A stretch of 64,000 nucleotides of DNA from Mustelus asterias (lineage: Eukaryota). The notes beneath the pieces were generated by a model. The model was not told where the DNA came from and made no database searches. It saw nothing but the letters and a program-made list of their open reading frames with translations. The stretch's first letter is position 1. Each line of letters begins with the position of its first letter. Positions 9,556 to 64,000 of the stretch are shown here, one piece after another. The DNA is taken from NCBI RefSeq assembly GCF_964213995.1, contig NW_027590136.1, forward strand, positions 1,116,001 through 1,180,000. The letters are read 5' to 3'. Made by a program: the position numbers and the translations under genes.

Positions 9556-9820
9556 GGAGGTTTCAGACAGAAATGCTGACTAAATATCTCTGAACCTCCT
9601 AACACTCTGTCACTCTGTGATCCTTGTGAAATTTGAAACCAGGTATTCGCAACAAGACTCAAAGAGCATCAGCCCACTGGAGGCAAAGTTGTGAGACCGG
9701 CCAGTCGAGCAGAAAGAAACCCTCCGACCCTCCCCATTGACCAACTGTGAGAATGAACAAAATGCAGTCCTGGATGTAACTGAGAGCAGAAACAATAACA
9801 GCAGAATCCAACCCTTGGAA

Positions 9821-10579
9821 TCACTCGTGAACTTGTTGGTGTCTCAGCAGCTGGGATGAAAGACTGAATCTCTTCTCACACTGAGAGCAGGTGAACGGCT
9901 TCTCCCCAGTGTGAACTCGCTGGTGTCTCTGCAGGTGGGAGGACCGAGTGAATCCCTTCCCACATTGAGAGCAGGTGAATGGCCTCTCCCCAGTGTGAAC
10001 TCGCTGGTGTCTCCGCAGGGCGGATAAATCAATGAATCCCTTCTCACACTGAGAGCAGGTGAACGGCCTCTCCCCAGTATGGACTCGCTGGTGTGTCTGC
10101 AGGCTGGATAACCGAGTGAATCCCTTCCCACCCTGAGAGCAGGTGAATGGCCTCTCCCCAGTGTGAACTCGCTGGTGTGTCCGCAGGCTGGATGACCGAG
10201 TGAATCCCTCCCCACACTGAGAGCAGGTGAATGGTCTCTCCCCAGTGTGAACTCGCTGGTGTCTCTGCAGGCTGGATAACTGAGTGAATCCCTTCCCACA
10301 CTGAGAGCAGGTGAACGGCCTCTCCCCAGTGTGAACTTGCTGGTGTGTCTGCAGGCTGGATAACCGAGTGAATCCCGTCCCACACTGAGAGCAGGTGAAT
10401 GGTTACTCCCCAGTGTGAACTCGCTGGTGTGTCTGCAGGCTGGATAACTGAGTGAATCCCGCCCCACACTGAGAGCAGGTGAATGGTCTCTCCACCGTGT
10501 GGCTGCGCCGATGAGCTTCCAGTTCAGAGGGGTATTTGTATCTCTTCCCACAGTCTGCACATTTCCATGGTTTCTCCAT
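9821..10579 (-). pseudogene. C2H2 ZNF gene, 9 fingers, premature TAA after finger 2 (ZNF cassette 2)
   Basis: ATG at 10579 (MEKPWKC) to TGA at 9821 is one frame of 84-bp CxxC...[11 protein letters not shown] repeats; in-frame TAA at 10403-10405. Confidence 0.88.
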
Positions 10580-11569
10580 GGTGCAGGTGTTCTTGCCTCT
10601 CTTCAGTTGAAGACTCGTCCACACCCCTGCTGTGAATGGTGTGATATTTATTCAGGCTGTGTAACTGGTTCAAGCTCAGTGCACTGGAACACACTCACTC
10701 CAGTGTGGCAGTGTGTTGGAGCTTTTCCAGTCACACTAATATTTGAAATCTTTTCAAGTCATCAGGCCGGACAACCATTTCTCCTCGATTCAAAGGCCGA
10801 TGATATTCAGCTCCCAAGGAATATGACTCTGTCAGATCTAGATGTGACGTTTGAGATTTCGGCCTGTGATTCCTCTTTCAGTATCCTGTAAAACAAGTTT
10901 ACAGAGATCATCAGTGTCAGTGCAGGATGGAAATTCAGAACACACAATTCTAGTTTCTGTGGAACATTCTTTCCTCTCTCCAGACTCGAAACATTGGCTC
11001 TATTCTCTCTCTATCTGGGGGATAGCGTGGGAAATGATGCTGCGATAGATCAGCCAATTCTCAATGAATGGTTGAGGCAGTTCGATGGGCTGAATGGCCA
11101 ACTGCAGCTCCTGTTTCTTATGATTTGTGTGGTGGACAGGAAGCAGTGAGCATGGATCTGTCAATCAGCCTCAATCAGCACCTTCAGGAGAATTGGGAGG
11201 GTGAATATTAGATACAGCAGAGTGAGAATGGAGGGAGAGTGTGTGGGATGGAGATTCACAGCTTTTGGGGAACGAGAGAGGAACGAATGTTCTTTAGAAT
11301 CATAGAATTCTTACATCTTATCAACCGTCCCTGAGCCTTCACAATGAATCTCTCTTCTCAGGACATTCTTATCTCTGACTTGTCTGTGCTGCTCGCAGTC
11401 TCACAAAGCAGCTGCCTGTGTGCTGATATGAGGGGCCCTGCGAGGCAAGTTTAATGCTCCATGACTGTGTCTTTAATGACTGAATAACTGTAGGAATATG
11501 GTCAAGTCAGCTAAACCACATGATGCTTTATATTTCGGTTAGTAACTGTTGATTTTGTTAACGTAGCAC

Positions 11570-12242
11570 GTCAGAGGATGACCTGGGTCCCGCCCCCTCC
11601 TCCCACCCACTCCCCCCACTGATCAGAGGATGACCTGGGTCCCGCCCCATCCACCCACCCACTCCCCCCACTGATCAGAGGATGACCTGGGTCCCACCCC
11701 CTCCCCCCACCGATCAGAGGATGACCTGGGTCCCGCCCCCTCCTCCCACCAACCCCCCCCCCCGATCAGAGGATGACCTGGGTCCCGCCCCCTCCTCCCA
11801 CCCACTCCCCCCACTGATCAGAGGATGACCTGGGTCCCGCCCCCTCGTCCCACCCACTCCCCCCACTGATCAGAGGATGACCTGGGTCCCGCCCCCTCCA
11901 CCCACCCACTCCCCCCACTGATCAGAGGATGACCTGGGTCCCACCCCCTCCTCCCACCCACTCCCCCCACCGATCAGAGGATGACCTGGGTCCCACCCCC
12001 TCCTCCCACTCACTCCCCCCACCGATCAGAGGATGACCTGGGTCCCGCCCCCTCCTCCCACCCACTGATCAGAGGATGACCTGGGTCCCGCCCCCTCCTC
12101 CCACCCACTCCTCCCACCGATAAGAGGATCACCTGGGTCCCGCCCCCTCCTCCCACCACTCCCCCCCCCCCCCCATCAGAGGATGACCTGGGTCCCGCCC
12201 CCTCCTCCCACCAGCCCCCCTGATCACAGGATGACCTGGGTT
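11570..12242. repeat. 52-bp C-rich/G-rich minisatellite, ~14 units
   Basis: GATCAGAGGATGACCTGGGTCCCGCCCCCTCCTCCCACCCACTCCCCCCACT, with exact 52-bp period from 11764 to 12024 and shorter variant units. Confidence 0.95.
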
Positions 12243-13538: not shown

Positions 13539-14116
13539 TGTTTTGCCGGACCGGTAACAGGTTCGTGGAGGTGGTCTGAGAGAAAGAATTCACACTACAC
13601 CAGTATTGCTAGAATAAAATGTGTCTCTTTATTCCCCACAATACATGGACAAGTTCTACAAGTATCATTCAATGGGCTAAGCCTTATATAGTTTAACTAC
13701 CCTGACACGTGGACTGGAGAGCCGTCAGTCCAGGTAGAGTGGCTTACCTCCCGCCGGGCGTCCGTACGTAACCCACGGCAGACTCTGCTGTAGTAGGGAC
13801 TTTCCCGCATATTTATAGAGAAAAGCCTCTCTTTGTTCTGGACATCTGAATATGAGTCACTCTTGGTATCCGGCCAAGTACGTGATGTTTAGAGCAGTCT
13901 CGTGCAATACAAGTTCTATTGTTCGCAGCTCAAGAAAACAAGTTTAATGGTTAATCATTCACGCTATGTCTTGGGCACGGATCTAATTTAATTATGTTTT
14001 GACATGTTTATCCTTTCATGTGGACAGGCTGTCTCCATTGTCCGTAGCAGTTGTCAGCATACGAGATTTTGCTGACAGGGTTGAAATCGGGACATTAACT
14101 CTTTATTCTCCTAACA
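13539..14116 (-). repeat. 3' LTR
   Basis: Direct repeat of 17508-18085; one mismatch found by eye (13905 C vs 17874 T). TATAAA ~13812-13817 and AATAAA 13628-13633 on the minus strand. Confidence 0.97.
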
Positions 14117-17507: not shown

Positions 17508-18085
17508 TGTTTTGCCGGACCGGTAACAGGTTCGTGGAGGTGGTCTGAGAGAAAGAATTCACACTACACCAGTATTGCTAGAATAAAATGTGTCTCTTTA
17601 TTCCCCACAATACATGGACAAGTTCTACAAGTATCATTCAATGGGCTAAGCCTTATATAGTTTAACTACCCTGACACGTGGACTGGAGAGCCGTCAGTCC
17701 AGGTAGAGTGGCTTACCTCCCGCCGGGCGTCCGTACGTAACCCACGGCAGACTCTGCTGTAGTAGGGACTTTCCCGCATATTTATAGAGAAAAGCCTCTC
17801 TTTGTTCTGGACATCTGAATATGAGTCACTCTTGGTATCCGGCCAAGTACGTGATGTTTAGAGCAGTCTCGTGTAATACAAGTTCTATTGTTCGCAGCTC
17901 AAGAAAACAAGTTTAATGGTTAATCATTCACGCTATGTCTTGGGCACGGATCTAATTTAATTATGTTTTGACATGTTTATCCTTTCATGTGGACAGGCTG
18001 TCTCCATTGTCCGTAGCAGTTGTCAGCATACGAGATTTTGCTGACAGGGTTGAAATCGGGACATTAACTCTTTATTCTCCTAACA
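17508..18085 (-). repeat. 5' LTR
   Basis: 578-bp direct repeat of 13539-14116, adjacent to the PBS. Confidence 0.97.
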
Positions 18086-21322: not shown

Positions 21323-22523
21323 TTGAGCATGGAAGGAAAAAGCACCGTTCACAGTGGGGTGAAACTGTACACGTGTCCTGTGTGTGGACAAGGATTCAGA
21401 CAATCATCTGCTCTGTCAAGACACAAGTGCAGTCACACTGAGGAGAAACCGTGGAAATGTGGGGAAGGATTCAGAGACCTGCCTGAACTGGAAATTCACC
21501 AATACAGTAACACTGGGGAGAGGCTGTTCACCTGCTCTGAGTGTGGGAGAGGATTCACTCAGTCATCCACCCTGCTGACACACCAGCGAGTTCACACTGG
21601 AGAGAGGCCATTTATCTGCTCCGAGTGTGGAAAGGGATTCACTCAATCATCTAACCTGCTGACACACCAGCGCACTCACACTGGGGAGAAGCCATTCACC
21701 TGCTCTGAATGTGGGATGCAATTCACGCAGTCATTCAACCTGCTGAGACACCAGCGGGTTCACACTGGAGAGAGGCCATTCACCTGCTCCGAGTGTGGGA
21801 AGGGATTCACTCAGTCATCTACACTGCAGACACACCAGCGAGTTCACACAGAGGAAAGACCATTTAAATGTCCAGAATGTGACAAGTGCGATAAAAGTTT
21901 AAAGGAAGTGATGTTCCATCAACGTGTTCACACTGAGGAGACCATTTAAATGCCCAGACTGCGAGAAGTGCTGTAGAGGTTCCAGAGAACTAATGTTCCA
22001 TCAACGTGTTCACACTGATGAGAGACCGTTCAGGTGCTCTCACTGCGGGACTGGGTTCAAGTGGTCATCTCAACTCACTGAACACCAGCGAATTCACACT
22101 GGGGAGCGGCCGTTCACCTGTACGGACTGTGGGAAGGGATTCACTCGGACATCACACCTCATGGCACATCAGCAAGTTCACACCGATGAGAGACCGTTCA
22201 AATGTCCAGATTGCGGGAAGTGTTGTAAAAGTTCCAGCAATCTAGTGTCCCATCAACGTGTTCACAGTGAGGAGACACCTTTTAAACGTCCAGACTGCGG
22301 GAAATGCAATAAAAGCTGCAGCGATCTGATGTCTCATCAACGTGGTCACACTGATGAGAGACCGTTCAAGTGCATTCACTGCGGGACTGGGTTCAGGCGA
22401 CCATCCCAACTCACTGTCCACCAGCGAATTCACACTGGGGAGAGGCCGTTCACCTGCTCCAAATGTGGAAAGGGATTCACTCAGAAATACAACCTGTTGA
22501 GCCATCAGCGAGTTGACAAGTGA
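21323..22523 (+). pseudogene. C2H2 ZNF gene of ~14 fingers with a frameshift near 21940 (ZNF cassette 4, different subfamily)
   Basis: ORFs 21323-21949 and 21924-22523 both encode tandem fingers; the linker CACTGAGGAGACCATTT lacks 2 nt. Several fingers have lost Cys/His. Acceptor at 21219; AATAAA at ~22614. Confidence 0.85.
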
Positions 22524-29458: not shown

Positions 29459-29944
29459 AATGGGGAGAGAGTGTGTGGGATGGAGATTTACAGCTTTTGG
29501 GGAATGAGAGAGGAATGAATGTTCCGTAGAAATTGTCTGTTCTGAATTTCTATCCTGTACTGACACTGATGACATTTGGAAACTCATTTTACAGGATATT
29601 GAAAGAGGAATCACAGGCCGAAATCTCAAACTTCACGTCTCGATCTGACAGAGTCTTATTCCTTGGGACCTCAATATCATCGGACTTTGAATCCAGAAGG
29701 AGAAATGATTGTCCAGTCTGTCGATTTGAAAAGATTTGAAATGTCAGTGTGAGTGAAAAAGCATCAACACACTGCCACACTCGAGTGAGAGTGTTCCAAT
29801 GCACTGACTAAAGAGCTTTAACCAGTTACACAGTCTGAATAAATATCACACCATTCACAGCGGGTAGAGACTGTAATCTTGTTCTGCATGTGGACGAAAT
29901 TCAACTAATTGTCCACCCAAGAGAGAGGTAAGGACACCTGCATC

Positions 29945-30871
29945 ATGGAGAAACCATGGAAATGTGTGGACTGTGGGAAGGGATACAGAACCCCATCAGA
30001 GCTGGAAGCTCATCGGCGCAGTCACACTGGGGAGAGGCCGTTCATCTGCTCTCAGTGTGAGAAGGGATTCATTCAGTTCTCCAGCTTACAGATACACCAG
30101 CGAGTTCACACTGGGGAAAGGCCATTCACCTGCTCTCAGTGTGGGAAGGGATTCACTTGTTCATCCAACCTGCGGACACACGAACGGGTTCACACAGGGG
30201 AGAGGCCGTTCACATGCTCTCAATGTGGGAAGGGATTCACTCGATTATCCGACCTGCAGATACACCAGCGAGTTCACACTGGGGAGAAACCATTCACCTG
30301 CTCTCAATGTGGGAAGGGATTCATTCAGTTATCAGACTTGCAGAGACACCAGCGAGTTCACACTGGAGAGAGGCCGTTCACCTGTTCTCAGTGTACCAAG
30401 GGATTCGCTCGATTATCCGAACTGCGGACACACCAGCGAGTTCACACTGGGGAGAAACCATTCACCTGCTCTCAGTGTGGGAAGGGATTCACTGTGTCAT
30501 CCAACCTGCAGACACACCAGCGAGTTCACACTGGGGAGAAACCATTCACCTGCTCTCAGTGTGGGAAGGGATTCAGTCGGTCAACCCACCTGCGGACACA
30601 CCAGCGAGTTCACACAGGGGAGAGGCCATTCACCTGCTCTCAGTGTGGGAAGGGTTTCAGCGTTTCATCCCAGCTGCTGAGACACCAGCGAGCTCACACT
30701 GGGGAGAAACCATTCATCTGCTCTCAGTGTGGAAAGGGATTCACTCAGTTATCCAACCTGCGGACACACCAGAGAGTTCACACTGGGGAGAGGCCGTTCA
30801 CCTGCTCTCAGTGTGGGAAGGGATTCACTCGGTTAACCCACCTGCGGATACACCAGCAAGTTCACGAGTGA
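29945..30871 (+). CDS. Intact C2H2 zinc-finger protein, 11 fingers, 308 aa, no effector domain visible (ZNF cassette 5)
   Basis: MEKPWKC start, 11 CxxC-x12-HxxxH units with TGE(R/K)PF linkers; acceptor TTTTACAG at 29594. Confidence 0.92.
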
Positions 30872-31119
30872 TGACAGTGGTTGGATTCTGCTGTTATTGT
30901 TTCTGCTCTCAGTTGCATCCAGGACTGCATTTTGTTCATTCTCACAGTTGGTCAATGGGAAGGGCCAGAGGCTTTCTTTGTGCTGGACTGGCCGGTCTCA
31001 GCCTCCAGTGGGCTGATGCTCTTTGAGTCTTTTTGCGAATACATGGTTTCAAATGTCACAAGGATCACAGAGTGACAGGGTGTTAGGAAGTTTAGAGATA
31101 TTTAGTCAGAAGAAAACAG

Positions 31120-37269: not shown

Positions 37270-38340
37270 CAAATGTTTTATTCCCACAAGAAAGACACGT
37301 TTAAATGGTATTCCTTCTAAGCAAATATTTTAAATGAATGCACTGTTCATTATGTGATTAAACAGTATTGGAAACTAGTAAATTGACTTGATGCTATTTC
37401 ATTTGTATAGCTTCCAAAAAAATATTCTTCCAACGATTAAAGCCTCTTTGTGATACTGACATCCCCAATCCCTCAGCCCCATGAGATCAGTGTAATGGCA
37501 CAAATATGAAAATAATTAAAAGCAAAAGAAAATCATATATCTGCCTTTAACAGCGGGGATTCCTGGAATATTCTCAGTGTTCTGCATCTCATTAAAGAGG
37601 CAACGTCTATTATACCTGATTAGCACCATGTTCTGTTGTACAGCATAATCTGATTTCGATTATTTAACAGTCCCTCTCATAACTGCTAATGAATGAAGAA
37701 ATGACCAGTTCATAACCTGGTTCAGTGGAAGATAAAATATTTATTCTTGCGATGTTGTGTACTATGCCGCAAAGTCCTGATGTCCTGTGTTCTCAATACC
37801 AATGAATGTTAGACAGCCGGTGGCCAATAAAATGAGCTATCATGATTTGGATGCTGAAGGAGTACTTTCCTGGTCGTCGTGTCCGTTCTGATTTATTCGC
37901 TTCATTGTCAAAAGTCAATGTCAATTTTATGTGTTTCTGTTAACTAAATGCTTATTTGTAAGTCAAGAAGGTTTATTTCACCGTTAATTTTCACAGGATT
38001 AAGGAGCTGTTGGGGAAATATAAGATGTAACATGGTATCATACGAGGAGTTTCTATTGTTAATTCATTAATGGGCGACACAGTGGCATAATGGTTACCAC
38101 GGCTGCCTCACAGCATCCTGAGAACATTAGTTGAGTTTGTCGATGAATTGTCCAGCGATAATAACACTAGGCCAGTGTTTCCCATCTTCTTATATCCAGT
38201 TCCAAGGTACAATGATAGCTATCCACACCTGAAATACAATCATCCCTGCATTAAGTTACATAAATCGATAATAATTCCTCTAATTAATTATACTTTGCTA
38301 CAATGTCTTAGAGACACAGAATTATTGTAAATCAGACTGA
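37270..38340 (+). repeat. Paralog of the VH upstream region 52520-53510
   Basis: Colinear blocks such as CCACAAGAAAGAC, TTCATTATGTGATTAAA, GTTCTGTTGTACA and TTTGGATGCTGAAGGA occur in both. Confidence 0.85.
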
Positions 38341-38915: not shown

Positions 38916-38948
38916 TTTGTTTTCATAGGATTTTAGATATTTTTACAA

Positions 38949-39450
38949 GTGTAGAATCGGAGGTTGTGTTGACTCAGCCAGAGGCAGAAACTGGGCATCC
39001 CTGAGGCTGACTGAGACTGACATGTAAAGCCAACGCGTTCAATATTGGCAGCAACTGGATAATCTGGGTACGACAGGTCCCTGAACAGTGTTTATCATGT
39101 CTTCTTCAGTACGATAGTCTTGGGACAACCTACAATTCCTCCGCCCCATGGATTCAGAATCCATTTACTCTGCCCAAAGACACTTCAAACAACGTAAAGA
39201 GAAAATGCTGGAAAATCTCAGCAAGTCGGCAGCATCTGTAAGGAGAGAGAAGAGCTGACTTTTCTAGTCCAGATGACGCTTTGTCAAAAGATCATCTGGA
39301 CTCGAAACCTCAGCTCTTTTCTCTCCTCACCGTTATTGCCAGGCCTTCTGAGATTTTCCAGCATTTTCTATTTTGGGTTCAATTCCAGAATCCACAGTAA
39401 TTTGTTTTCATACTTCAAACAACACCTTCTGTTCAGAAATAACTGAAACC
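38949..39450 (+). pseudogene. Ig VH pseudogene (IgM-like), truncated in FR3
   Basis: EVVLTQPEAETGHP*G*LRLTCKA...WVRQVP...FTLPKDTSNN. Two stops; no leader, YYC or RSS found. Confidence 0.92.
39194..39411. mobile_element. Palindromic Penelope-derived element inserted into the pseudo-VH
   Basis: Long inverted arms; 12-bp duplication ACTTCAAACAAC at 39182-39193 and 39412-39423. Confidence 0.85.
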
Positions 39451-51660: not shown

Positions 51661-53843
51661 CTGCATCAACACAGTCATGCATTTATTGTTTGAATAGATG
51701 GTGACGTAATATTAATTGAAGTGGCCCAGTGATCCAGAGGCCCAGGACAATGATGTGAGGACAGGGATTTAAATCGGACCATTACAGCTGGTGGAGTTTG
51801 AATTCAATTAAAAAATCTGGAATAGATACTAATGGCGACCAAAGGAACCTCTCTGATTCCCCAATGAAGGAAATCTGCCATCGCTCCCTGGTCTCACACG
51901 GATGTGACTCCACACGGACAGTAAAATGGCTGGATTTTTAATATCTTCAGAAGTGGCCTAGAAAACCAATTAGTTCAAGGGAATTTGGGACAGGCAAAAA
52001 GTGCTGGTCTTTCCTCCATCTGAAACATGCCATGGAAGGATAAAGGGAAAGAAAACACAAACATAAATGTTCATGTATTACAACATGTATCCTCTCTCTG
52101 ACTCATCTCTCACAGTCTGCCTGTAATTCTTTCTATTCATCCATCACACTCTCCTGATGTACTGGAAAAATCATCATTGGTGCAAACAGGGTGCCAGAGA
52201 AGCTGCATAACTCCTTTCTTGAGAAATGGGAGCAATTCATTTGGATTTACAACTTTAAATAATTAAAGTGCCTCCTGTACTATTGCTGGGTATATTTCTT
52301 TATAAATAGGCCTCATTGACAATTGAAGAGTTTGAATTTGTCTTTCAGCCAAGCGGTCAGTACTGAGGAAACAGATATTTGACTTACTGCACAAACACCC
52401 CCAGATGCTTCCTGTCAATAACTTTGAGCGTTTGGCAGCAGCTTGGATTGCTGCCAAATACTGTGTGGGACAGATCAGCGTGAACCTGAATGGACAAAAT
52501 GGGATTCAGCCATTTAAACGATAAATATTTCATTTCCACAAGAAAGACGCATTTTAAATCGTAATCGTTCGTGTCAAATGTTTCCATTCATGCCCTGTTC
52601 ATTATGTGATTAAATGGTATCGGAAAACAATAAATTGACAAGATGCTGTTTTATTTGTGTAACTTCCAAGCAAATGCCATTCCAATCATTAAAGTCTGTT
52701 TATTAACTGCTTCATGAAATGCGAGAGAGAGATGTTGATGGTCTCAATTCCCCCTTCAATTGAGATCAGTGCAAAGACAAAAAAAATGCAAATAAATAAT
52801 ATTAAAATAACGTCATGAAACTGCATGGAACAGCGGAGATACCTGGAATATTCACAAAGTACTGCACCTCGTTTTATCAGCAGCGTCTCTTATTCCTGAT
52901 TCGCACAGTGTTCTGTTGTACACTATAATCTGACTTCCATTATTCAATAGTTCATCTCATATCTGCCAACGAGTAGATAAATTATCAGTTTATAACCTGA
53001 TTCAGTGGAAAGTAAAATATATATTCTTGTGATAATGTGTAATGTGCCGCAAATCCTGATATCCTGTGTTCCTGATACCAGCGAATATTAGACAACCGGT
53101 GGCTAACAAAATGAGCTGCGATAATTTGGATGCTGAAGGACAACTTTACTGATCGCCGTGTCTGTTCCGATTAATTAAATTCTCTGTCAAAAGGCAAATT
53201 CAATTTTATGCTTCTCTGTTTCTCTGCCAACGCACTCTTTAATTTTCACGCAGGCGGGTTTGTTTTACCCCTAATTTAGACAGAGCTGTCTTCCATTCAG
53301 GGACATTTTGAAAAATGTCAGGAGACACTATATAATGCGAGGAAATTCCTGTTATCTCCAAACCCAAATTGTACCGTGATAGCCATCCAGACTGTAAATA
53401 GAATCACTTGTTTTCGTCCCCGCATTTAATTAAAGAAATCGATAGCAATTCTTCTGATAAATTATGCTTTATTATTGTAATGTGATAGAGACCCGGAATT
53501 GTTGCAAGCTAGACTCAATGTTACTTTATTTTCTGAAAATATAATTTTATTACTTTTAGTTTTGTCTTTTTGTTAGGGGCGTGTTAATAAAAGCACCATG
53601 TTTACAGTTGAATTAGTTTTTTTTAATACAGAGATGATGAACTGCAATATCACCTTTAGAAATAATGGAGACATTGCAATGAATCGATTCAGGCAAACGA
53701 AAATCCTGATAGTGATAAAATGCCCACTTTATTATTAACCTATTGTTAATCCCGGAGTCCATTCTTTTGGGGGTGTGGAAGGTGGGACCTGGATCCAGTC
53801 GCCGCCTCCACCCGGGAATCAAAAGGCGGCGCCTTCTGCCGGG

Positions 53844-53860: not shown

Positions 53861-53942
53861 CTGGGACCGGAATCCAACAGTCCGGGAGTTGGTTTGTTCA
53901 CTGAGTTCCTGACACAACCATTTCCCCCAAATGACCAGAAGA

Positions 53943-53988
53943 ATGAACTCGGCGATTTCTCTCAGTTTGTTGCTGACTTTCTTATCCG
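53943..53988 (+). CDS. IgH leader exon (MNSAISLSLLLTFLS; in-frame upstream ATG at 53931)
   Basis: Hydrophobic leader, phase-1 GT donor at 53989, intron to TACAG at 54115. Confidence 0.9.
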
Positions 53989-54115
53989 GTGATTAGTTTT
54001 TCTTGTCCACGTCTCTCACTGTTACTGTATCAGAATTAGCCTACCTTTGGAATGACCCAGAGTCAGCAATCATTTCACCAAGATTAATCCTCGGTAATTT
54101 GACATGTTTTTACAG

Positions 54116-54423
54116 GTGTCCAGTCGGAGATTGTGTTGACTCAGCTGGAGGCAGAAACAGGGCGTCCCGGCGGCTTCCTGAGACTGACCTGTAAAACCAG
54201 TGGCTTCGATCTTGGCAGCAACTGGATGAACTGGATTAGACAGGTTCCCGGACAGGGGCTGGAGTGGTTGGTTGGATACAGAAGTTCATTTTACACCACC
54301 TACTATGACCCACAGATTCAGGGCCGATTTACTCCGTCCAAAGACCTTTCGAACAATATCTTCGCTTTGGACATGATGAGCCTGAAGACTGAAGACACCG
54401 CCATCTATTACTGTGCAAGAGAC
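54116..54423 (+). CDS. IGHV: Ig heavy-chain V segment, shark IgM-type, unrearranged and open
   Basis: VQS-EIVLTQ...[10 protein letters not shown]...[12 protein letters not shown]...[10 protein letters not shown]. Confidence 0.96.
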
Positions 54424-54462
54424 CACAGTAAGAGGAACCAGGGCTGGACCTCAACAAGAACA
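54424..54462 (+). promoter_or_regulatory. VH 23-RSS
   Basis: CACAGTA, 23-bp spacer, ACAAGAACA. Confidence 0.9.
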
Positions 54463-54830
54463 GCTCGAGAGGGAGTGCAGCAACTTCCATCATAACCTGA
54501 TTGTCAATAACTGTTTTAAGTGTAATGTTAATGACAGTGATCAGAACTAAAACACAAACCGCTTCTGACAAACCTAACTTAGAGAAAATTAAACATTAAA
54601 CCGAGCAAACCCACAGACATAATGGTGCTTTTCACTCTATTTATATTTACCGTTAACAGTTTCTGCAATTGCAGACCTGGGATATAATGCTCGTTTTAAT
54701 ATTTCTGATACTTGGAGGAGATGTTTCTGGATTGTGTTTTATAAACTGCTGCATAAATTGTAAATTGCTCAGAAATATTGGTCTATTTGTAGTGAATATT
54801 GAGCGGCAGTACTGAACAGAGAGTGAGTGC

Positions 54831-54906
54831 AGTTTTTGTGCGGGCGTGTCTCACTGTGATACAGCAGTGGGTGGGTGGCACAACAGTTACTGTCAATACA
54901 AAAAAC
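54831..54906 (+). other. IGHD: Single DH segment (54859-54878) with 12-RSS on both sides
   Basis: AGTTTTTGT-12-CACTGTG | ATACAGCAGTGGGTGGGTGG | CACAACA-12-ACAAAAAAC. Confidence 0.9.
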
Positions 54907-55213
54907 CCCTCAGCACTAATTGACCGAGGCTGTGTCAGTGCTCTGGTTCACAATCCAACATTATTTACAGTGCTGTATTATTGATGTCTAACACTGCAAT
55001 AATAGCGAGAATTAATATTCAATGATCAGTTGGTGTTTTCAATAATATGATCATGTGATACTCTGTGAAATATAAAGTATTCGGGTCATTTATGTAGAGC
55101 GAACAGTGTCCACAAATACAATAATAATTTGATGAAAATGCAGTGATTTACTTACCCTCTGGCTTGTGAATTTTTAAAATAATGGTGGATTTCTGTCTAT
55201 TTTGCGCAGGGAT

Positions 55214-55300
55214 GGTTATTGTATGAGCCAGCCCAGGGAATGTGACACTGTGACGCCATGGATTACTGTGGACAAGGGACCATGGTGACGGTGACTGCAG
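55214..55300 (+). CDS. IGHJ: JH segment (55253-55300) with 23-RSS
   Basis: GGTTATTGT-23-CACTGTG; AMDYCGQGTMVTVTA; donor GTAAGG at 55301. Confidence 0.94.
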
Positions 55301-55834
55301 GTAAGGACTGTAAATTTATTTAGTAAGTGTTTTACTTGAGTTTTTGTTTTATATTTTTTCTCGATTTTATTAATTCACTTGTTCACTGAAATGTGGTTTG
55401 GTGGATTATGTGCTGAAAATCTTTACAATGTTTCATGTGATTCTGCTTAAAATGGGGGTTATAGAATTCTACTGATAATTGACAAAAGGTGAGTGATTCA
55501 GTCTCTGTTGTGATTTGGTGTTTATCTGCTGAGGACATTGTGTGGTTGGGTTACTTTAAGTACCTACCTTCTGTTAAACAGTTCGGCGTTTCTGCAATGT
55601 TTTATCTCGGTGACATATAGTGGCTGCGAGTTGTACCATCAACTGCACAAGTGTTTGACGTCTAACCCAATATTAACAAAACGTGTTAAAGTTTCTGCAT
55701 TAATATTATGAACATGTTCCACTTAATCACAATGCTGCTTTTGTTATGTCGTTGTTGTGCTCATTTTAATTATTAGTTACTTTGGTGACGGGCGGATTGG
55801 CTGGATTTTATATTGAGATTTTCTTGCAATGTTG

Positions 55835-56318
55835 CATTTGCAGAGGAGATTTGCCAGGATGCTGCCTGGTTTGGAGGGTCGGTCTTATGAGGAAAGGTTG
55901 AGGGAGCTGGGGCTGTTCTCTCTGGAGCGGAGGAGGCTGAGGGGGGGGGGGGGGGGGATATAATAGAGGTTTATAAAATGATAAAGGGGATAGATAGAGT
56001 GAACGTTCAAAGACTCTTTCCTCGGGTGGATGGAGCTTTTACAAGGGGGCATAACTATAGGGTTCATGGTGGGAGATATAGGAAGGATATCAGAGGTAGG
56101 TTCTTTACGCAGAGAGTGGTTGGGGTGTGGAATGGTCTGTCTGCAGTGATAGTGGAGTCAGACATTTTAGGAACATTTAAGCGGTTATTGGATAGGCACA
56201 TGGAGCCACCAGGATGATAGGGAGTGGGATAGCTTGATCTTGGTTTCAGATAAAGCTCGGCACAACATCGTGGGCCGAAGGGCCTCTCCTGTGCTGTACT
56301 GTTCTATGTTCTATGATT
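55835..56318 (+). mobile_element. CR1 3' fragment in the J-C intron
   Basis: Near-identical to the reverse complement of 42352-42810. Confidence 0.9.
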
Positions 56319-59267
56319 CTGTTGAAAGTGTTTGTAGAATTGAGCTGCTTCTGCATGAAACGGAGTTCAGTCGCTCAGTGATGTGCATTTCTGGTGAGGA
56401 GATTTTGTATCTGGGTGACTTTGAATAAGTAAAACGTGTGAGATGGTTTTTCGATTCAGCATTGTTTCTGCATTGTTTAAAGTCGGTTACACTGATCTGT
56501 TATACGCTTTGTGCTTGAATACAAACAGTCTATAGGTGTTAAATTGCTTGACAGAAATCGGGCATGCTTTATTGCATTTGTATTTTTTTATCGTAAGTGA
56601 TAATTGCAGATCACGCCGCTCGTTCAGAACATAGTTTGCCACTGCAATCACTGTTTGGGGTATCTGCAATGTTTAACCTCGGTGATATCTGATGGCTGAA
56701 GTTTTTCCCATATGTTTAAATATGTTTGAAATTTGACCCAATATAAATAAAATGTGTTAAAGTTTCAATACTAATTTGTCGGACATATTCCACCTCCGCG
56801 CAACGTTATTGCTATTATTCCATATTTCTGTTTAGGTTAATGATTCATGCATTTGGTGACGAGCTGTTTTGCTGAATTCAACATTGAGATGTTCTTGCAA
56901 TGTTCCATTTGATTCTGTTGAATGAATAATTGAGCTGCTATTCCGTGAAACGGGGTTCCATCCCTCAGTGATCTGTTTTGGAGTGTTTCTTTTGAGGAGA
57001 TTTTGTGGTTCGGCCACTGTGAATATTTAAAATGTGTGAAATGGTTTGGCATTTCAGCATTGTTCTGCATTGTTTAATCTCGGTGGTACTGAGCTGTTAC
57101 ACGTTTTCTGGTTGAAAGCAAACAATCTATGAGTTTGAAAATCCATGTAGAGAGAAAACAGGCAGGTTTTGGGAAAAAGATAGAGACATTACAGCGTTTT
57201 TATAAATTTTAACTAACGCTTCCAAATTAAAATAAATCATGACTTACAAAGTTCATTCGGACAGTAAGTCGTTGCTGCAGTCACAAACTTCTCATTAACA
57301 AGTTTGATAGTAAAATTAATATGAATCAAACAATTATTAATCGGTAATATTCACCATTCACCACATTCACCAAAGATTATTTTGTATTAATATCATTTAG
57401 CATTAATGACTTCTACTAGTTCTGCTGTGCTTTGCACACAATTAACATGACCAGAAAAAATTCTGTGCTGGAAATATTTTGTGATAATTCCAGAAACTAT
57501 TTCAATGATAACATGCTGCTTCCACAGCAGCGCTCAGTTTAACAAGATACTTTGCATTAATCGTTATCTCCTTGATTAAGTTCGCATTCACTTAAATATG
57601 AGTTTCGGAAAATAAGACATTGCTATTTGGCAATTTATGTATCCGATTGTTACATTCTTTCTGTGCAGGCGCAACCACATTATTCCTTCCAAGTAATCTA
57701 TAGTTGGATACACGATAATTAATCCCTAATCTAATCTTAAAATTTGTTGAACTGTTTGTGGTTGCTCAATTGTTTCTGTATTGTTTAGCTCAGTGATAAT
57801 GAGCAGTTACACGTTTTCTGGCTAAATGAAAATAAATCTGCGTTTGAAAATTCTTGTAGGGATAAAACAAACAGATTTCGGAAAAATAAAATAAATACAT
57901 GTTATAGTATCTTATTAGTGTTAACTGATGCTTAAGAATTAAAATAAATCATGAATTACAATTCTCACTATGCCACTATATCTCTGTTAGGGACATTACT
58001 CATTTTCAGAAAAAGTACATTTTTGCCCAGTTTTCGAGATTTGAGACAGACAGGGAGAGATATTTAAAGATTGAAGGGAGTTTTGAAATGAATATCAGTT
58101 TAATTTAAAATAGTTTATTGATTTTTTTGTTGTTGCAATTTTATCATTGATAAATTAGAATCAAACTGTTTGAATAAATTTGGCAGATTGAACAGAGATT
58201 TCTGACGGGTGGAATTCGCTTACACTCAAGTAATTGTTCATTAGATTAGATTATGTTTGAATTGTAGTAAATTAAATTGTAGTAAAGTGTCAATAGAAAC
58301 TGGCTAAAGATGGAGAAGTTAATGCTTGAAATGCAAAAAGATTAATTTATATAAAATATTATAATAATATTATATATATTATAAAAGTAATCTTAGCTCT
58401 TCACTTAATAATAACATTCTGTCTCCCACTACTGCTGAACACAGGATAGAATTATGGGAAGAATAAATAACGGAACAGAAGAATTGATTCTATCTGAACC
58501 TTATGTTCTTATTAAATATTATAATGAAAAAAAAGTCTGGACTTGTATTCTGCATCATGTTTTAGTGTTACAGAGGATTTGAATCAATTGTCCTCTTTGT
58601 GTTTGCACTGTTTAATTCAGATCTTCTTTAATTAAACGATATGTTCAGTAATTAAGTTATTTGGATGCTCTAAATTATTAAATCTAGGAAGCAGTATGAT
58701 TGATTTCAAACTGTCAGGCCGTTACCGCCTATAGAAATTCAGAACTATGCATTTTAACACGTTTGTAGGTTATAATAAGACATTTGTAGTAAAGGTTAAA
58801 AAGTTAAAATATTACAATGTGATTAGATTTAAGTAAATGAATGACAGATGTCTGAATGTTTCCATTCAGTAATTTGAAATTATTGTTCAACATTGTCTAA
58901 GATTTAATTGTAACCTAATTATTTAACAATGTTGGAGGCAGAAGCACGTTTTGAATGATTGATAACTCATTTTATTACAGAGTACAAATCAGCTAACAGG
59001 AGAACGAACTGACAAATAACAATAACTTACAATATAATATTAATTCAAAACAAAAGACCTTGAATATTGCACTGGCCTGCAAAATATCACCCGTTTTAGA
59101 GAATATTTAATTGTATCAGAAATGAATTCAGAAACAAAACATTTCTTTACTCAGCTGTGCTCAGCTCGATAAAGTGCTTTGCCTTGATTATTTTGTTGAT
59201 TACATTTAATTAAGAAATTAGATCGAATCAGGTAATGATTTTCAACGTACATGTTTCTTGGTTTGTT

Positions 59268-59470
59268 TAATTGTTACTGTGTCACTGCATCTCTGTTAGG
59301 GACACTGAATTGTTACTGTGTCACTGCATCTCTGTTAGGGACACTGAATTGTTACAGTGTCACTGCATCTCTGTTAGGGACCCTGAATTGTTACTGTGTC
59401 ACTGTATCTCTGTTAGGGACATTGAATTGTTACAGTGTCACTGTATCTCTGTTAGGGACATGGAATTGTC
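59268..59470. repeat. 39-bp tandem repeat x5
   Basis: AATTGTTACTGTGTCACTGCATCTCTGTTAGGGACACTG units. Confidence 0.93.
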
Positions 59471-60779
59471 CTGAATCTGTTATTTTCGATTGCTCATTTT
59501 CAGCGAAATTACATTTTTACTTAGTTTTCGAGAAGTGAGACAGAGAAATAATTAAAAATTGACAGGAGTTTTGGAATGAATATCAGTTTTATTTAAAAGA
59601 GGTTATTGATTTTCTGTTGTTGTAAGTTGTTCATTAATCAATTAGAATCGAACAGTTTGAATGAAATTGACAGATTGAACAGACATATCTGCTGGGAAAT
59701 CGATTGTTGCACCGTAATGTGTCTGTTGTCCGCGTGGTCACCGTGTTGGTGCCAGGAATCTGCCTGACTGGTTGTAAATCTTCTGGTTCCTTCGCCTGTA
59801 TTTCAGGGAGTGAAATTTGATTTATTTCTTCAATACACTTGTACCTGTGAGAAATGTGACAGTTTGACTTGATGTTTGATTTGGCGTCTCTGAAATTAGA
59901 TCCCTAAAGCATAATGTTACCATGAGAGAGAGAGCAGAAACGTCAGACTGGAGCGGGAGAATTGGGTGATTTTTAAGCAGTGATGTACCTGCCTTGGGAA
60001 TGCTCGATGAGCAAATGGAAAGTGAGATTTACTATATTGTACTCCATACTAGAGCAGTCCCTAACCTGTTTAGTAGGACAGTTGGAGGGTCAAATTCATT
60101 TGCATCTTATTTTTAATCTTCTAAAGGTATTTTAGAGTCATTTGCTCGGCCAGAATTTTTAATCTTCCCGAATTGTTCCTTGAGAAAGTGTTGATATGAA
60201 GCATCTTTGAATAACTGCAGTCCATATGCTGCAGGCATCCGCCGTGCTGTTGGGCAGGCAGTTCCAGGATTTTCACCCAGCGACAGTGAAGGAACTGAGA
60301 TATTGTTTCAAGTCAGGACGGAGGGGAGCTTGCAGGTGGTAGTGTTCATATGTGGCTGCCGCCCTTGCCCTGCTAGGATGTAAAGGCAGCGGGCTTGGAC
60401 AATGTTTTCTATGGAGCCTTGGTGAGTTGCTGCAGTGCATTTTGTATATAATACACACTGCTGATACTGCTTGTTAATGATGGAGAAAATGAATAGGATG
60501 AATGAGAGGGCGGGTAACCTTATGGGCTACCTTACCTGAGCGTTACCTTATGGGCGACTTAGCCCTGGATTGTGTCAAATTTCTTGAGTTTTAACAAGTT
60601 TCGCTCATTGAGGAAAGAGGAAATTATTCATTGTGACTGACTTGTGAAAGATTTAACTGTTTTTCTAACCTTTGACCCGCAGTCCGTATTGTGCTCACAT
60701 ATCACTCCCACTGACTGTGTGAGTGGGTGAGTTTGTGTGGAGTGAGGGTGCTTTTCCAAACTGAATCAGCCAGCTAGAG

Positions 60780-61892
60780 ACTTACACACATCACACATTC
60801 TCACACACATAAATACACACATATACACTCTCATATTCTCTCACACATGCACACATACATACTCAGACTTACTTACCCTCTCATACGATCTCTCTCACAA
60901 ACCCATAGACATTCTCTCTGTCTCACGTTCTACATACACTCTCAAATACAAATGCATACATATTCTCGCTCTCTCAATCAATCTCTCACACTCCCATACA
61001 CAAAAGCACTCACACACACACACACCCACACACATTCTCTCTTACACGCAGACGCACACTCTCACATAAGCACAGTCTCACACTTTCGCACACGCACTCT
61101 CACATGCACTCTCTCTCCCACACTCTGTCACACACGCTCAAGCTATCTCACATTTATTCACACAGGCTCTCTCACAATTCCTCTTGGACACGCATCTCTC
61201 TCTCTCTCTCTCACGCACACACGCATATATTTCTATTTCTCTTGCACACACTATCTCACACCTGTACATTCTTGCTCTCACACACTGGCTCTCTCACAAA
61301 CACTCTCTCACAAACATAGAACATGCACACACTGTAACACACATTCTTACACACAGACACAGTCTCTCACATAAGCACAGTCATACGTACACATTATCCC
61401 TCACATACACACACACACACACATGCACTATCCCTCTCACATTCCCTCTTCCGTACTCTCATTCCGTCTCACACTCATTCACACACACACACGCACACAC
61501 ATGCACTATCCCTCTCACATTCCCTCTTCTGTACTCTCATTCCGTCTCACACTCAGTCACATACTCTCTCTCATACGAACACTTGCACACGCATTCTCTT
61601 ACATAGGCACATATTTCTCTCTCTTTCACACGCTCACTTCCTTACACATTGTCTCACAGATGCACAATCTTGCTCTCAAATACTGTCTCTCACAAACACC
61701 CTCCCTTTCACACACACACAGTCTCGACATCTCTCACACACGGACACACATGTATATGCAACGTATCTCTCAAACACTCCACCTATCACAGGCACATGTT
61801 ATCTCAACGGTTATTTCACTCACACACACTCACATATCCATTCTGTCTAAGTTTCACACTTTTTGTCGCTCACACACACTCTCCCCGCCCCT

Positions 61893-61947
<55 letters not shown>

Positions 61948-62178
61948 GTTTGAAGAACAGAGACATACTCTCACATAAATAAAGAATAACTCTTCAAACA
62001 CACTCTCTCTCACACACAGACACACACATTCTCTATCTCACATATCCTTCCTCTCACGCACACTCTCTTTTCTTGCACGCACAAAGCTCTCATGTGTCTG
62101 ACCCACTCTCACACACATAAACACACACAACGTCTCTCTCTCTCACACAAAAACTCTCTCACGCTCTCTCTGTCTCTC

Positions 62179-62210
<32 letters not shown>

Positions 62211-62790
62211 ACACACACACACACTCAAACATATTGCTTCTATCACCCACACACATTGCACACATCTTTCTCACTCACACGCCATCCCATGCACACTTTC
62301 ACACACTGATGAACCTACTATTTTGCTTTCCAATAGGCACTCCCTCTCACACACACTGTCTTTCACATGAACACAACACTCTCTCCCACACACACATACC
62401 CTCCCTCTCAAGCACACACACTCTCTTTCACAGACACCCTATATCACATATAGACACACTCCTTTTCACATAAACACACACTCAATCACACACAGAAGAA
62501 CTCTCTCACACAGACTGCCCACACACACACTTTCAAGAAGAGACACGCTCTCACACACAAAAAATAACTCTTCAAATACACATTCTCTCTCACACACACA
62601 CACATTACTTCACACACCCTTTCTCTCACGCATACTCTCCCCTCTTGCACACACAGCCCACTGTCTCACACATGTGCAAATGCAGTCCATCACACACAGG
62701 CATCCTCAGACTCACACCTCTCTCTCTCTCTTATTCACACACACCCAAACACCCTCTCACACACTTTCTATCTCTCATACGTCAGAGTGT
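60780..62790. repeat. CA/CT-rich low-complexity tract with a (CA)n microsatellite (similar CTCA-rich tract at 63720-64000)
   Basis: Direct inspection; ORFs here are His/Thr/Ser/Leu artefacts. Confidence 0.95.
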
Positions 62791-64000
62791 CTGTCCTTGA
62801 CATCATAGAATAGAATCATAGGATCCTACAGTGCAGAAGGAGGCCATTCAGCCCATCGAGTCTGCCACAACAGCAATCCCACCAAAGCCCTATCCCCATA
62901 ATCACATGTATTTACCCTAACTAGTCTCCCTAACACTAAGGGGCAATTTACCACGGCCAATCCACCGAACCCGCACATCATTAGACTCTGGGAGGAAACA
63001 GGAGCACCCAAGGAAAACGCAAGCAGACATGGGGTGAACTTACAAACTCCACATAGACACTGACCCAAGTCGGGGATCGAACTGTGAGGCACCAGCGCTA
63101 ATCACTGTGCCACCGTGCCACCGCCCTCCCCCCTCTACCCCCCTCCAACCCGGTAGCACTTGAATGAGGGTGGGATCGAGGAGCCCGAATAAAACTCAAG
63201 TGAATAAGATCGGCGGGAAATTCTTCTCTGTTTGGAGTCATACTTAGCACAAAGCAAGATGGTAATGGTTGTTGGAGGTCAAATATCTAAGTTGAGATAT
63301 CACTGCAGGATTTCAGCAGGGGACTATTCTGGGACGAACAATCTTCTACTGCTTCATCAATGACATTCCATCCAACATGAGGTCAGAAGTAGGGATTTCC
63401 ATGTGTTACACCGGACATAAAGACACAATAAATAAGGAGGAACTTGCCTGAGACTAAGTCTGCCTGTCTCCCAATACTGGTGTAAATTTGGTGTTTGATT
63501 CCTGTGCAACCCATCCTAGTTTTGCTGTAAGCTTCCCTTCCAGCTCCCTCAGTCGGTCTATTTGTTCACTGATACGTGTTTCTTAAAAAAAGGCATCGAC
63601 ATGAAAGCAGCTGCCCGGTGACCTACACTGCTGCCTGACTTTACACAGCCCTGTTTCTGAAAGCTGATCAATGTGGAGAATCGGGAAAAGATCGATGGAG
63701 AGGAAGAGGAGGAGGTGGCCCACTGACTCTCTCACCCTCATCTACGCTTACTCACTCAAGCTCAATCTCTCATCCTCACTCAAAGAACTTCAGTCACTCA
63801 CCCTATCTTACCTACCTTCCCTCGCTGACACACTCTCACTCACTCACCCTCACTTACTCATTCCCACTCACTCATCCCCACTCACTCACCCTCACTCACC
63901 GTTGTTCACTCGTCCTTTCTCACTCACTCACACACTCAACCTCACTCACTCACCCTCAGAAACTCACTGATCCTCATTCACCCTGAGTCGCTCACCCTCA

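Follow-up and report, generated by a model that had tools for sequence, protein, structure and literature searches.

The only D segment of an IgM-type heavy-chain cluster in the window (the whole stretch of DNA that was analysed, 64 kb long) is, to judge from the sequence of its junction, a RAG-type coding joint of D1 and D2, which lies between a V and a J that are still unjoined. The join is probably young and not fixed in the species. Four origins were weighed, with probabilities that are judgements and not computed values, and the reading that we tentatively prefer, a young inherited join that either segregates as an allele or sits in a recent duplicate, comes close to an even chance.

Public short contigs were compared with positions 54400-55330 at 80% likeness in four of the 20 runs available, which covered three samples of the species, S1 (run X1), S2 (run X3) and a third one, S3 (run X4), together with organism B. 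The evidence listed comprises 32 of 236 contig pieces, 40 of 260 substitution rows, 12 of 37 gap rows and 24 of 73 loose ends; the filter of this comparison leaves holes, and the contigs attest presence, not absence.

Organization of the IgM-type cluster

The 64 kb hold one intact V, one D, one J and one truncated pseudo-V. The elements of the cluster are the following:

53931..53988, + strand: leader exon, with ATG at 53931 or 53943 and a GT donor at 53989
54116..54423, + strand: VH exon of the IgM type, open frame, Pfam V-set domain
54424..54462, + strand: 23-RSS of V, with heptamer CACAGTA and nonamer ACAAGAACA; the paralogs have G at 54430
54831..54858, - strand: 5' 12-RSS of D1, near consensus; the alignments of D1-type contigs run through it, and D2-type contigs depart at 54846
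54859..54872, + strand: D1, complete, 14 nt; paralog contigs of X1 (2), X3 (1) and X4 (1) match up to 54872
54873..54878, + strand: D2 tail, its last 6 nt, from the gap pattern of the paralogs and the junction parse
54879..54906, + strand: 3' 12-RSS of D2, with heptamer CACAACA (54879-85), a 12-nt spacer and ACAAAAAAC (54898-54906)
55214..55252, - strand: 23-RSS of J, near consensus, from the RSS scan
55253..55300, + strand: JH (AMDYCGQGTMVTVTA), with a TGT Cys codon at 55267-69 replacing Trp and a GT donor at 55301

When spliced, the leader and the V exon formed one open frame in the translation check, and the leader is close to the leaders of the aligned shark IgM heavy chains. The best shark match of the V was a Triakis scyllium IgM heavy chain with 80% identity (13 proteins at E<=1e-30), and a PDB search placed it in the VH fold family. 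Compared with its shark IgM relatives, the framework shows some oddities, namely L for P, F for S/T and P for A/V. An IgM cluster is expected to carry an IgM-type VH with leader and 23-RSS, two Ds (with 12/22-23 and 12/12 RSSs) and a JH with a 23-RSS and the motif WGXG. We found the first of these, only one D in the window, and a J whose RSS is present and whose motif reads CGQG.

The D is ATACAGCAGTGGGTGGGTGG (54859-54878, 20 nt), and its 5' RSS is composed of the nonamer AGTTTTTGT (54831-39), a 12-nt spacer and the heptamer CACTGTG (54852-58). From nonamer to nonamer, the V-D and D-J gaps measure 368 and 307 bp. A relaxed RSS scan of 54400-55320 found no second D, in agreement with the preliminary description, which had reported a single 20-nt D with 12/12 RSSs between V and J. 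The window has one short segment flanked by 12/12 RSSs this good, and none of the block-shuffled windows has any (0/40, + strand counted). The remaining signals, V23-12D12-23J, obey the 12/23 rule, as had also been claimed. The three frames of the D (IQQWVG / YSSGWV / TAVGGW) are all open as reported there, but this is uninformative, as D1 alone is open too and 28% of 20-mer shuffles are open. The likeness to a tetrapod single-D locus holds for the V23-12D12-23J signal pattern but is only formal, as it would be in any V-DD-J intermediate; a tetrapod-type IgH locus has its V, D and J segments in translocon arrays, which the window lacks.

Two further signal-like motifs were observed. One, on the + strand of the V-D spacer (54533-54560), resembles a 12-RSS, GACAGTG-12-ACACAAACC, whose heptamer is without the first C; it is probably inactive, and the paralogs differ at 54532 and nearby. 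The other, a heptamer-like CACTGCT, is embedded in D1 at 23 nt from the D1 5' nonamer (54831-54869, - strand) and is a possible cryptic 23-RSS.

The 20-nt D is parsed as a D1-D2 coding joint

In all three samples of the species, paralog contigs track the window up to 54872, beyond which they have a CACAGTG heptamer followed by a spacer of 22/23 nt. By eye, a stretch of 12 nt in this spacer also occurs in the nurse shark primer '3' of D1', read as its reverse complement (PMC2435157, partial text). In all four runs, other contigs depart 5' of 54846 into a different nonamer and spacer, showing a separate D2 with a 5' RSS of its own. Gaps within the D give this D2 a 12-nt or a 13-nt form, with the same ending as the D of the window. 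The shortest parse of the junction leaves D1 untrimmed, needs no N nucleotides, and takes 7 nt from the 13-nt form of D2 or 5-6 nt from the 12-nt form. The preliminary description had parsed the 20 nt as D1 plus a trimmed D2, and the paralogous contigs of the three samples agree with it; in the paralog alignment that it had proposed, the 5' flank corresponds to D1, the 3' flank to D2, and both internal RSSs are precisely lost.

Both inner RSSs and the spacer between them are absent, and the left breakpoint lies exactly at the border of the D1 heptamer. The D1 3' spacer of 22 or 23 nt makes the D1 3' RSS and the D2 5' RSS a 12/23-compatible pair. As for processing of the coding ends, 5-7 nt were trimmed from D2, and neither N nor P nucleotides are needed. 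By a rough calculation, the chance that both ends fall at RSS borders is 1.5e-4. The loss of the inner RSSs, the left end at the heptamer border and the 12/23 fit of the pair together indicate a coding joint of the RAG type.

An origin without RAG seems very unlikely to us, whether the 20-nt D were native, the product of an ordinary deletion, or a mis-join of paralogs in the assembly. The short G-rich ends common to D1 and D2 could guide a microhomology deletion; however, deletion through the common TGGGT motif leaves one copy, whereas the window keeps the whole end of D1 and then the D2 tail, and its left breakpoint is exactly at the heptamer border. Multicopy clusters are error-prone in assembly, which would favour a mis-join. 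A native 20-nt D among the paralogs, which would have spoken against the fusion, is absent from those listed.

A 20-mer scan of metagenomes returned two matches without RSS context, which were taken as chance, and TACAGCAGTGGG is present once in the indexed text of Hinds-Frey 1993. In organism B, a contig of depth 2.9 has the start of D1 joined to J via 28 other letters (54862-55266), a V-DDJ-like arrangement.

The locus appears with an intact D2 in another sample

The locus was followed by its private letters, e.g. A54430, T54933 and T55269, whose depth is 53-63 in X1 and 3.9-5.8 in X3. None of the contigs listed for the three species samples spans the junction, and the depth arithmetic of X1 fits either state. 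In S2, record 14 of run X3 is an unbroken contig of 447 nt over 54846-55299, with a depth of 5.76, 7 gaps and 2 other letters, the latter at positions outside the rows listed. On the 3' side of the D, 15 sites are listed; at 13 of them it alone bears the letter of the window, and at the remaining two it shares this letter with one more contig (a recomputation covered 10 of the 15). As depth sums show (25.8+10.5+5.76=42.1 and 10.5+5.76=16.2), record 14 also carries D2-type gaps, at 54862, 54864 and 54866. Among the contigs listed for X3, the locus-type heptamer is borne only by this intact-D2 contig. These private letters and D2-type gaps indicate that the locus carries an intact D2 in S2, where its D-J-J segment appears to sit behind an intact D2. 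The earlier claim of a heritable germline join was thus not borne out and is in part contradicted, given the three samples without a listed junction contig and the intact D2 at the locus in S2.

Record 14 could be explained otherwise if the join were fixed in all animals and the contig were a de Bruijn chimera of a paralog D2 with the D-J part of the locus. Site 54872 tells the joined from the intact form, and 54905 is the first that tells the locus from its closest paralog (records 2 and 3 in X1); the two are spaced 34 nt, just above the 31-letter word length, and a chimeric path through the graph with this paralog is possible. The contigs attest presence only, and the depth of X1 has a hole at 54767. 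However, the junction path and the downstream path of the paralog would both have to drop in X3 while 425 nt of the locus stay unbroken, the marks of the closest paralog have a depth of 0 in X3, and the listed contigs of all three samples include none across the junction. We consider a fixed join improbable.

The third sample is silent on the joined or unjoined allele, since the path of the locus itself is found in X4 only from 54933; the X4 depth over 54862-72 (65.4) is accounted for in full by two contigs, one with an unjoined D1 (30.6) and one with a 12-nt D2 (34.8). The flanks of the window are matched with 0 differences in 310 nt in S2 (record 9), and with 0 in 425 nt (record 2) and 1 in 310 nt in S1; the upper 95% bound of the divergence is about 0.4%. 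This near-identity in both samples suggests that the join is young. At 54741, 54767, 54778 and 54790 the window differs from nearly all of the aligned contigs. Hypermutation and private alleles were weighed as the reason and dropped, as these differences fit the usual 7-10% paralog divergence and lie in a filter hole. The paralog of record 3 was seen in X1 and X4 and not in X3, among the rows listed; cluster content seems to differ between samples.

A young inherited join or a somatic V-DD-J molecule

We place just short of an even chance the specific form of the preferred reading, a heritable V-DD-J IgM allele from a RAG event in a germ cell, standing beside a near-identical unjoined parent allele. 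RAG would have paired the D1 3' 22/23-RSS with the D2 5' 12-RSS, and the D1-D2 spacer of roughly 400 bp would have been excised. The end of D2 would then have been trimmed and ligated to D1 without TdT additions. D1-D2 joining was likely favoured at this locus, because the V heptamer CACAGTA and the D2 3' heptamer CACAACA are weakened compared with most paralogs (at 54883 the latter has A and most paralogs have G), and these two weakened heptamers may stall the locus at V-DD-J. Locus-specific RSS efficiency has been proposed for the nurse shark (PMC2435157, partial text). Since CAC is kept in all RSSs, the joined locus could still complete V-DD and DD-J joining under the 12/23 rule.

The junction without N bases resembles the germline-joined NS4 genes of the nurse shark, which show 'little evidence of TdT activity' (PMC2193156, partial text), and for this reason leans to the germline. 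A paralog in which V, D1 and D2 are joined and J is unjoined has the same 30 junction letters in S1 and S2 (on 54417-54878), and a second V-D1-D2 joint, free of N, is listed in S2 only, at a depth of 16.1 compared with 3.9-5.8 for single-locus contigs. The species thus makes germline V-D1-D2 joins. The joint shared by S1 and S2 carries N-like letters, so the absence of N is a weak sign of a germline origin. The two V-D1-D2-joined paralogs also hint at copy differences among joined clusters.

The near-identity to unjoined alleles would be predicted equally by a somatic event, in which the D1-D2 join at this locus took place in a T or B lymphocyte, the assembler kept this molecule, and the germline is V-D1-D2-J. 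We regard this as a serious possibility, somewhat below an even chance. The intact-D2 form of the locus in S2 (record 14) and the lack of a listed junction contig in 3 of 3 samples are consistent with it. In the nurse shark (PMC2435157, partial text), V-DD-J is a documented somatic product of thymocytes and spleen that red cells lack; of the Group 2+4 loci, 60% were rearranged in thymus. In the same source, however, somatic junctions show trimming and typically have N/P addition, the latter not needed here, and pseudogene clusters showed no rearrangement on Southern blots, while the cluster studied here looks decayed. By our own reasoning, moreover, a minority molecule from polyclonal cells would seldom win the assembly consensus. 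Against a segregating inherited join, Lee et al. judged germline joins infrequent (PMC2193156, partial text) and saw none in NS4 that was polymorphic for the joined and unjoined state (PMC2193153).

Decay of the cluster

The J motif, which the preliminary description had missed, reads YCGQG, with Cys (TGT 55267-69) for the conserved Trp, which is W in all nine aligned relatives (9/9). Among the rows listed, T55269 belongs only to the locus's own contig (depth 62.8 of 1758.5 in X1 and 5.7 of 154.2 in X3), and its presence in both S1 and S2 suggests that the Trp-to-Cys change predates the join. A tblastn search with five shark heavy chains found no C-mu exon in 55301-64000; the window ends 8.7 kb past J, and the distance to C-mu in the nurse shark is 6.3-6.8 kb (PMC2435157, partial text). 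With Cys in J, two weakened heptamers and no C-mu exon found in the 8.7 kb up to the end of the window, the cluster looks decayed. The Trp-to-Cys change would likely impair the product, and a working new locus is doubtful for this reason.

Comparison with known joined clusters and significance

The cluster resembles a partially joined shark IgH cluster, and its membership among the germline-joined ones is putative. A germline fusion of D1 and D2 is known in nurse shark type III IgNAR (PMC4622739, partial text), and a pre-joined D in bamboo shark IgNAR2/5/6 (PMC8692893, partial text). Like the window, these genes have joined Ds with V and J unjoined, and one junction fewer; they differ in having three Ds and in being described as stable features of the germline, whereas the window has an IgM-type V, one D and an unjoined form in another sample. 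The nurse shark IgM V-DD-J of Malecek et al. 2008 (PMC2435157, partial text) has an identical layout with spacers of ~400 bp. Each of these somatic molecules is unique to its clone and typically has N/P bases, and red cells have none of them, whereas no N is needed in the window.

Horn shark and skate have IgM clusters that are joined in the germline, and the nurse shark has such NS4 light chains (PMC2193153, PMC2193156); they share with the window coding joints that are RSS-directed and trimmed, with little sign of TdT. The NS4 joins were not polymorphic in the work of Lee et al. (PMC2193153), whereas the join of the window seems not to be fixed. The joined IgM types given in reviews, as far as their available text goes, are VD-J, VD-DJ and VDJ (PMC4279169, PMC5192425). 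Lewis and Wu print 'V DD-J' (PMC2193153), which is ambiguous between VDD-J and V-DD-J. No germline V-DD-J IgM cluster was found in the literature searched, which covered few of the subscription papers; among 30 papers listed of 315, one uses the term V-DD-J, for a somatic state.

For the youngest germline join, Lee et al. (2000) gave an age of up to about 7 My (PMC2193153); with this age and without polymorphism, their work left ongoing germline RAG activity open. If the segregating allele is true, it would count as direct evidence for present-day RAG editing of the shark germline, and a germline state with D-D joining alone would exist in IgM and not just in IgNAR. With a joined allele next to its unjoined twin, ongoing germline RAG activity would become testable in a population, and its rate obtainable. 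If the join is somatic, 'germline-joined' clusters from single shark assemblies would need checks at the read level. The effect on the repertoire is probably small either way, because the cluster looks decayed.

Other features of the window

A truncated VH pseudogene lies at 38930-39196 (+ strand); it is ~50% like shark IgM V, contains an in-frame stop, and ends in FR3 with no RSS of note. Positions 37502-37773 and 52782-53053 are 78% alike, suggesting an old duplicate of the 5' part of the cluster ~15.3 kb upstream. Zinc-finger genes, one of them oppositely oriented, are located upstream of the Ig cluster. Tandem repeats of 84 bp occur at about 9700-10600, 21400-22500 and 29900-31000, and the one at 21.9 kb translates to C2H2 zinc fingers. 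A direct repeat of at least 300 bp (13539-13838 and 17508-17807, 3969 bp apart) is 100% identical and represents a recent duplication, the ends of an element or an assembly duplicate. Minisatellites of 52 bp and 39 bp and a long CA/CT-rich low-complexity tract were found at 11500-12240, 59230-59470 and 60790-62780, the last two lying past J, in the region in which one might expect C-mu1.
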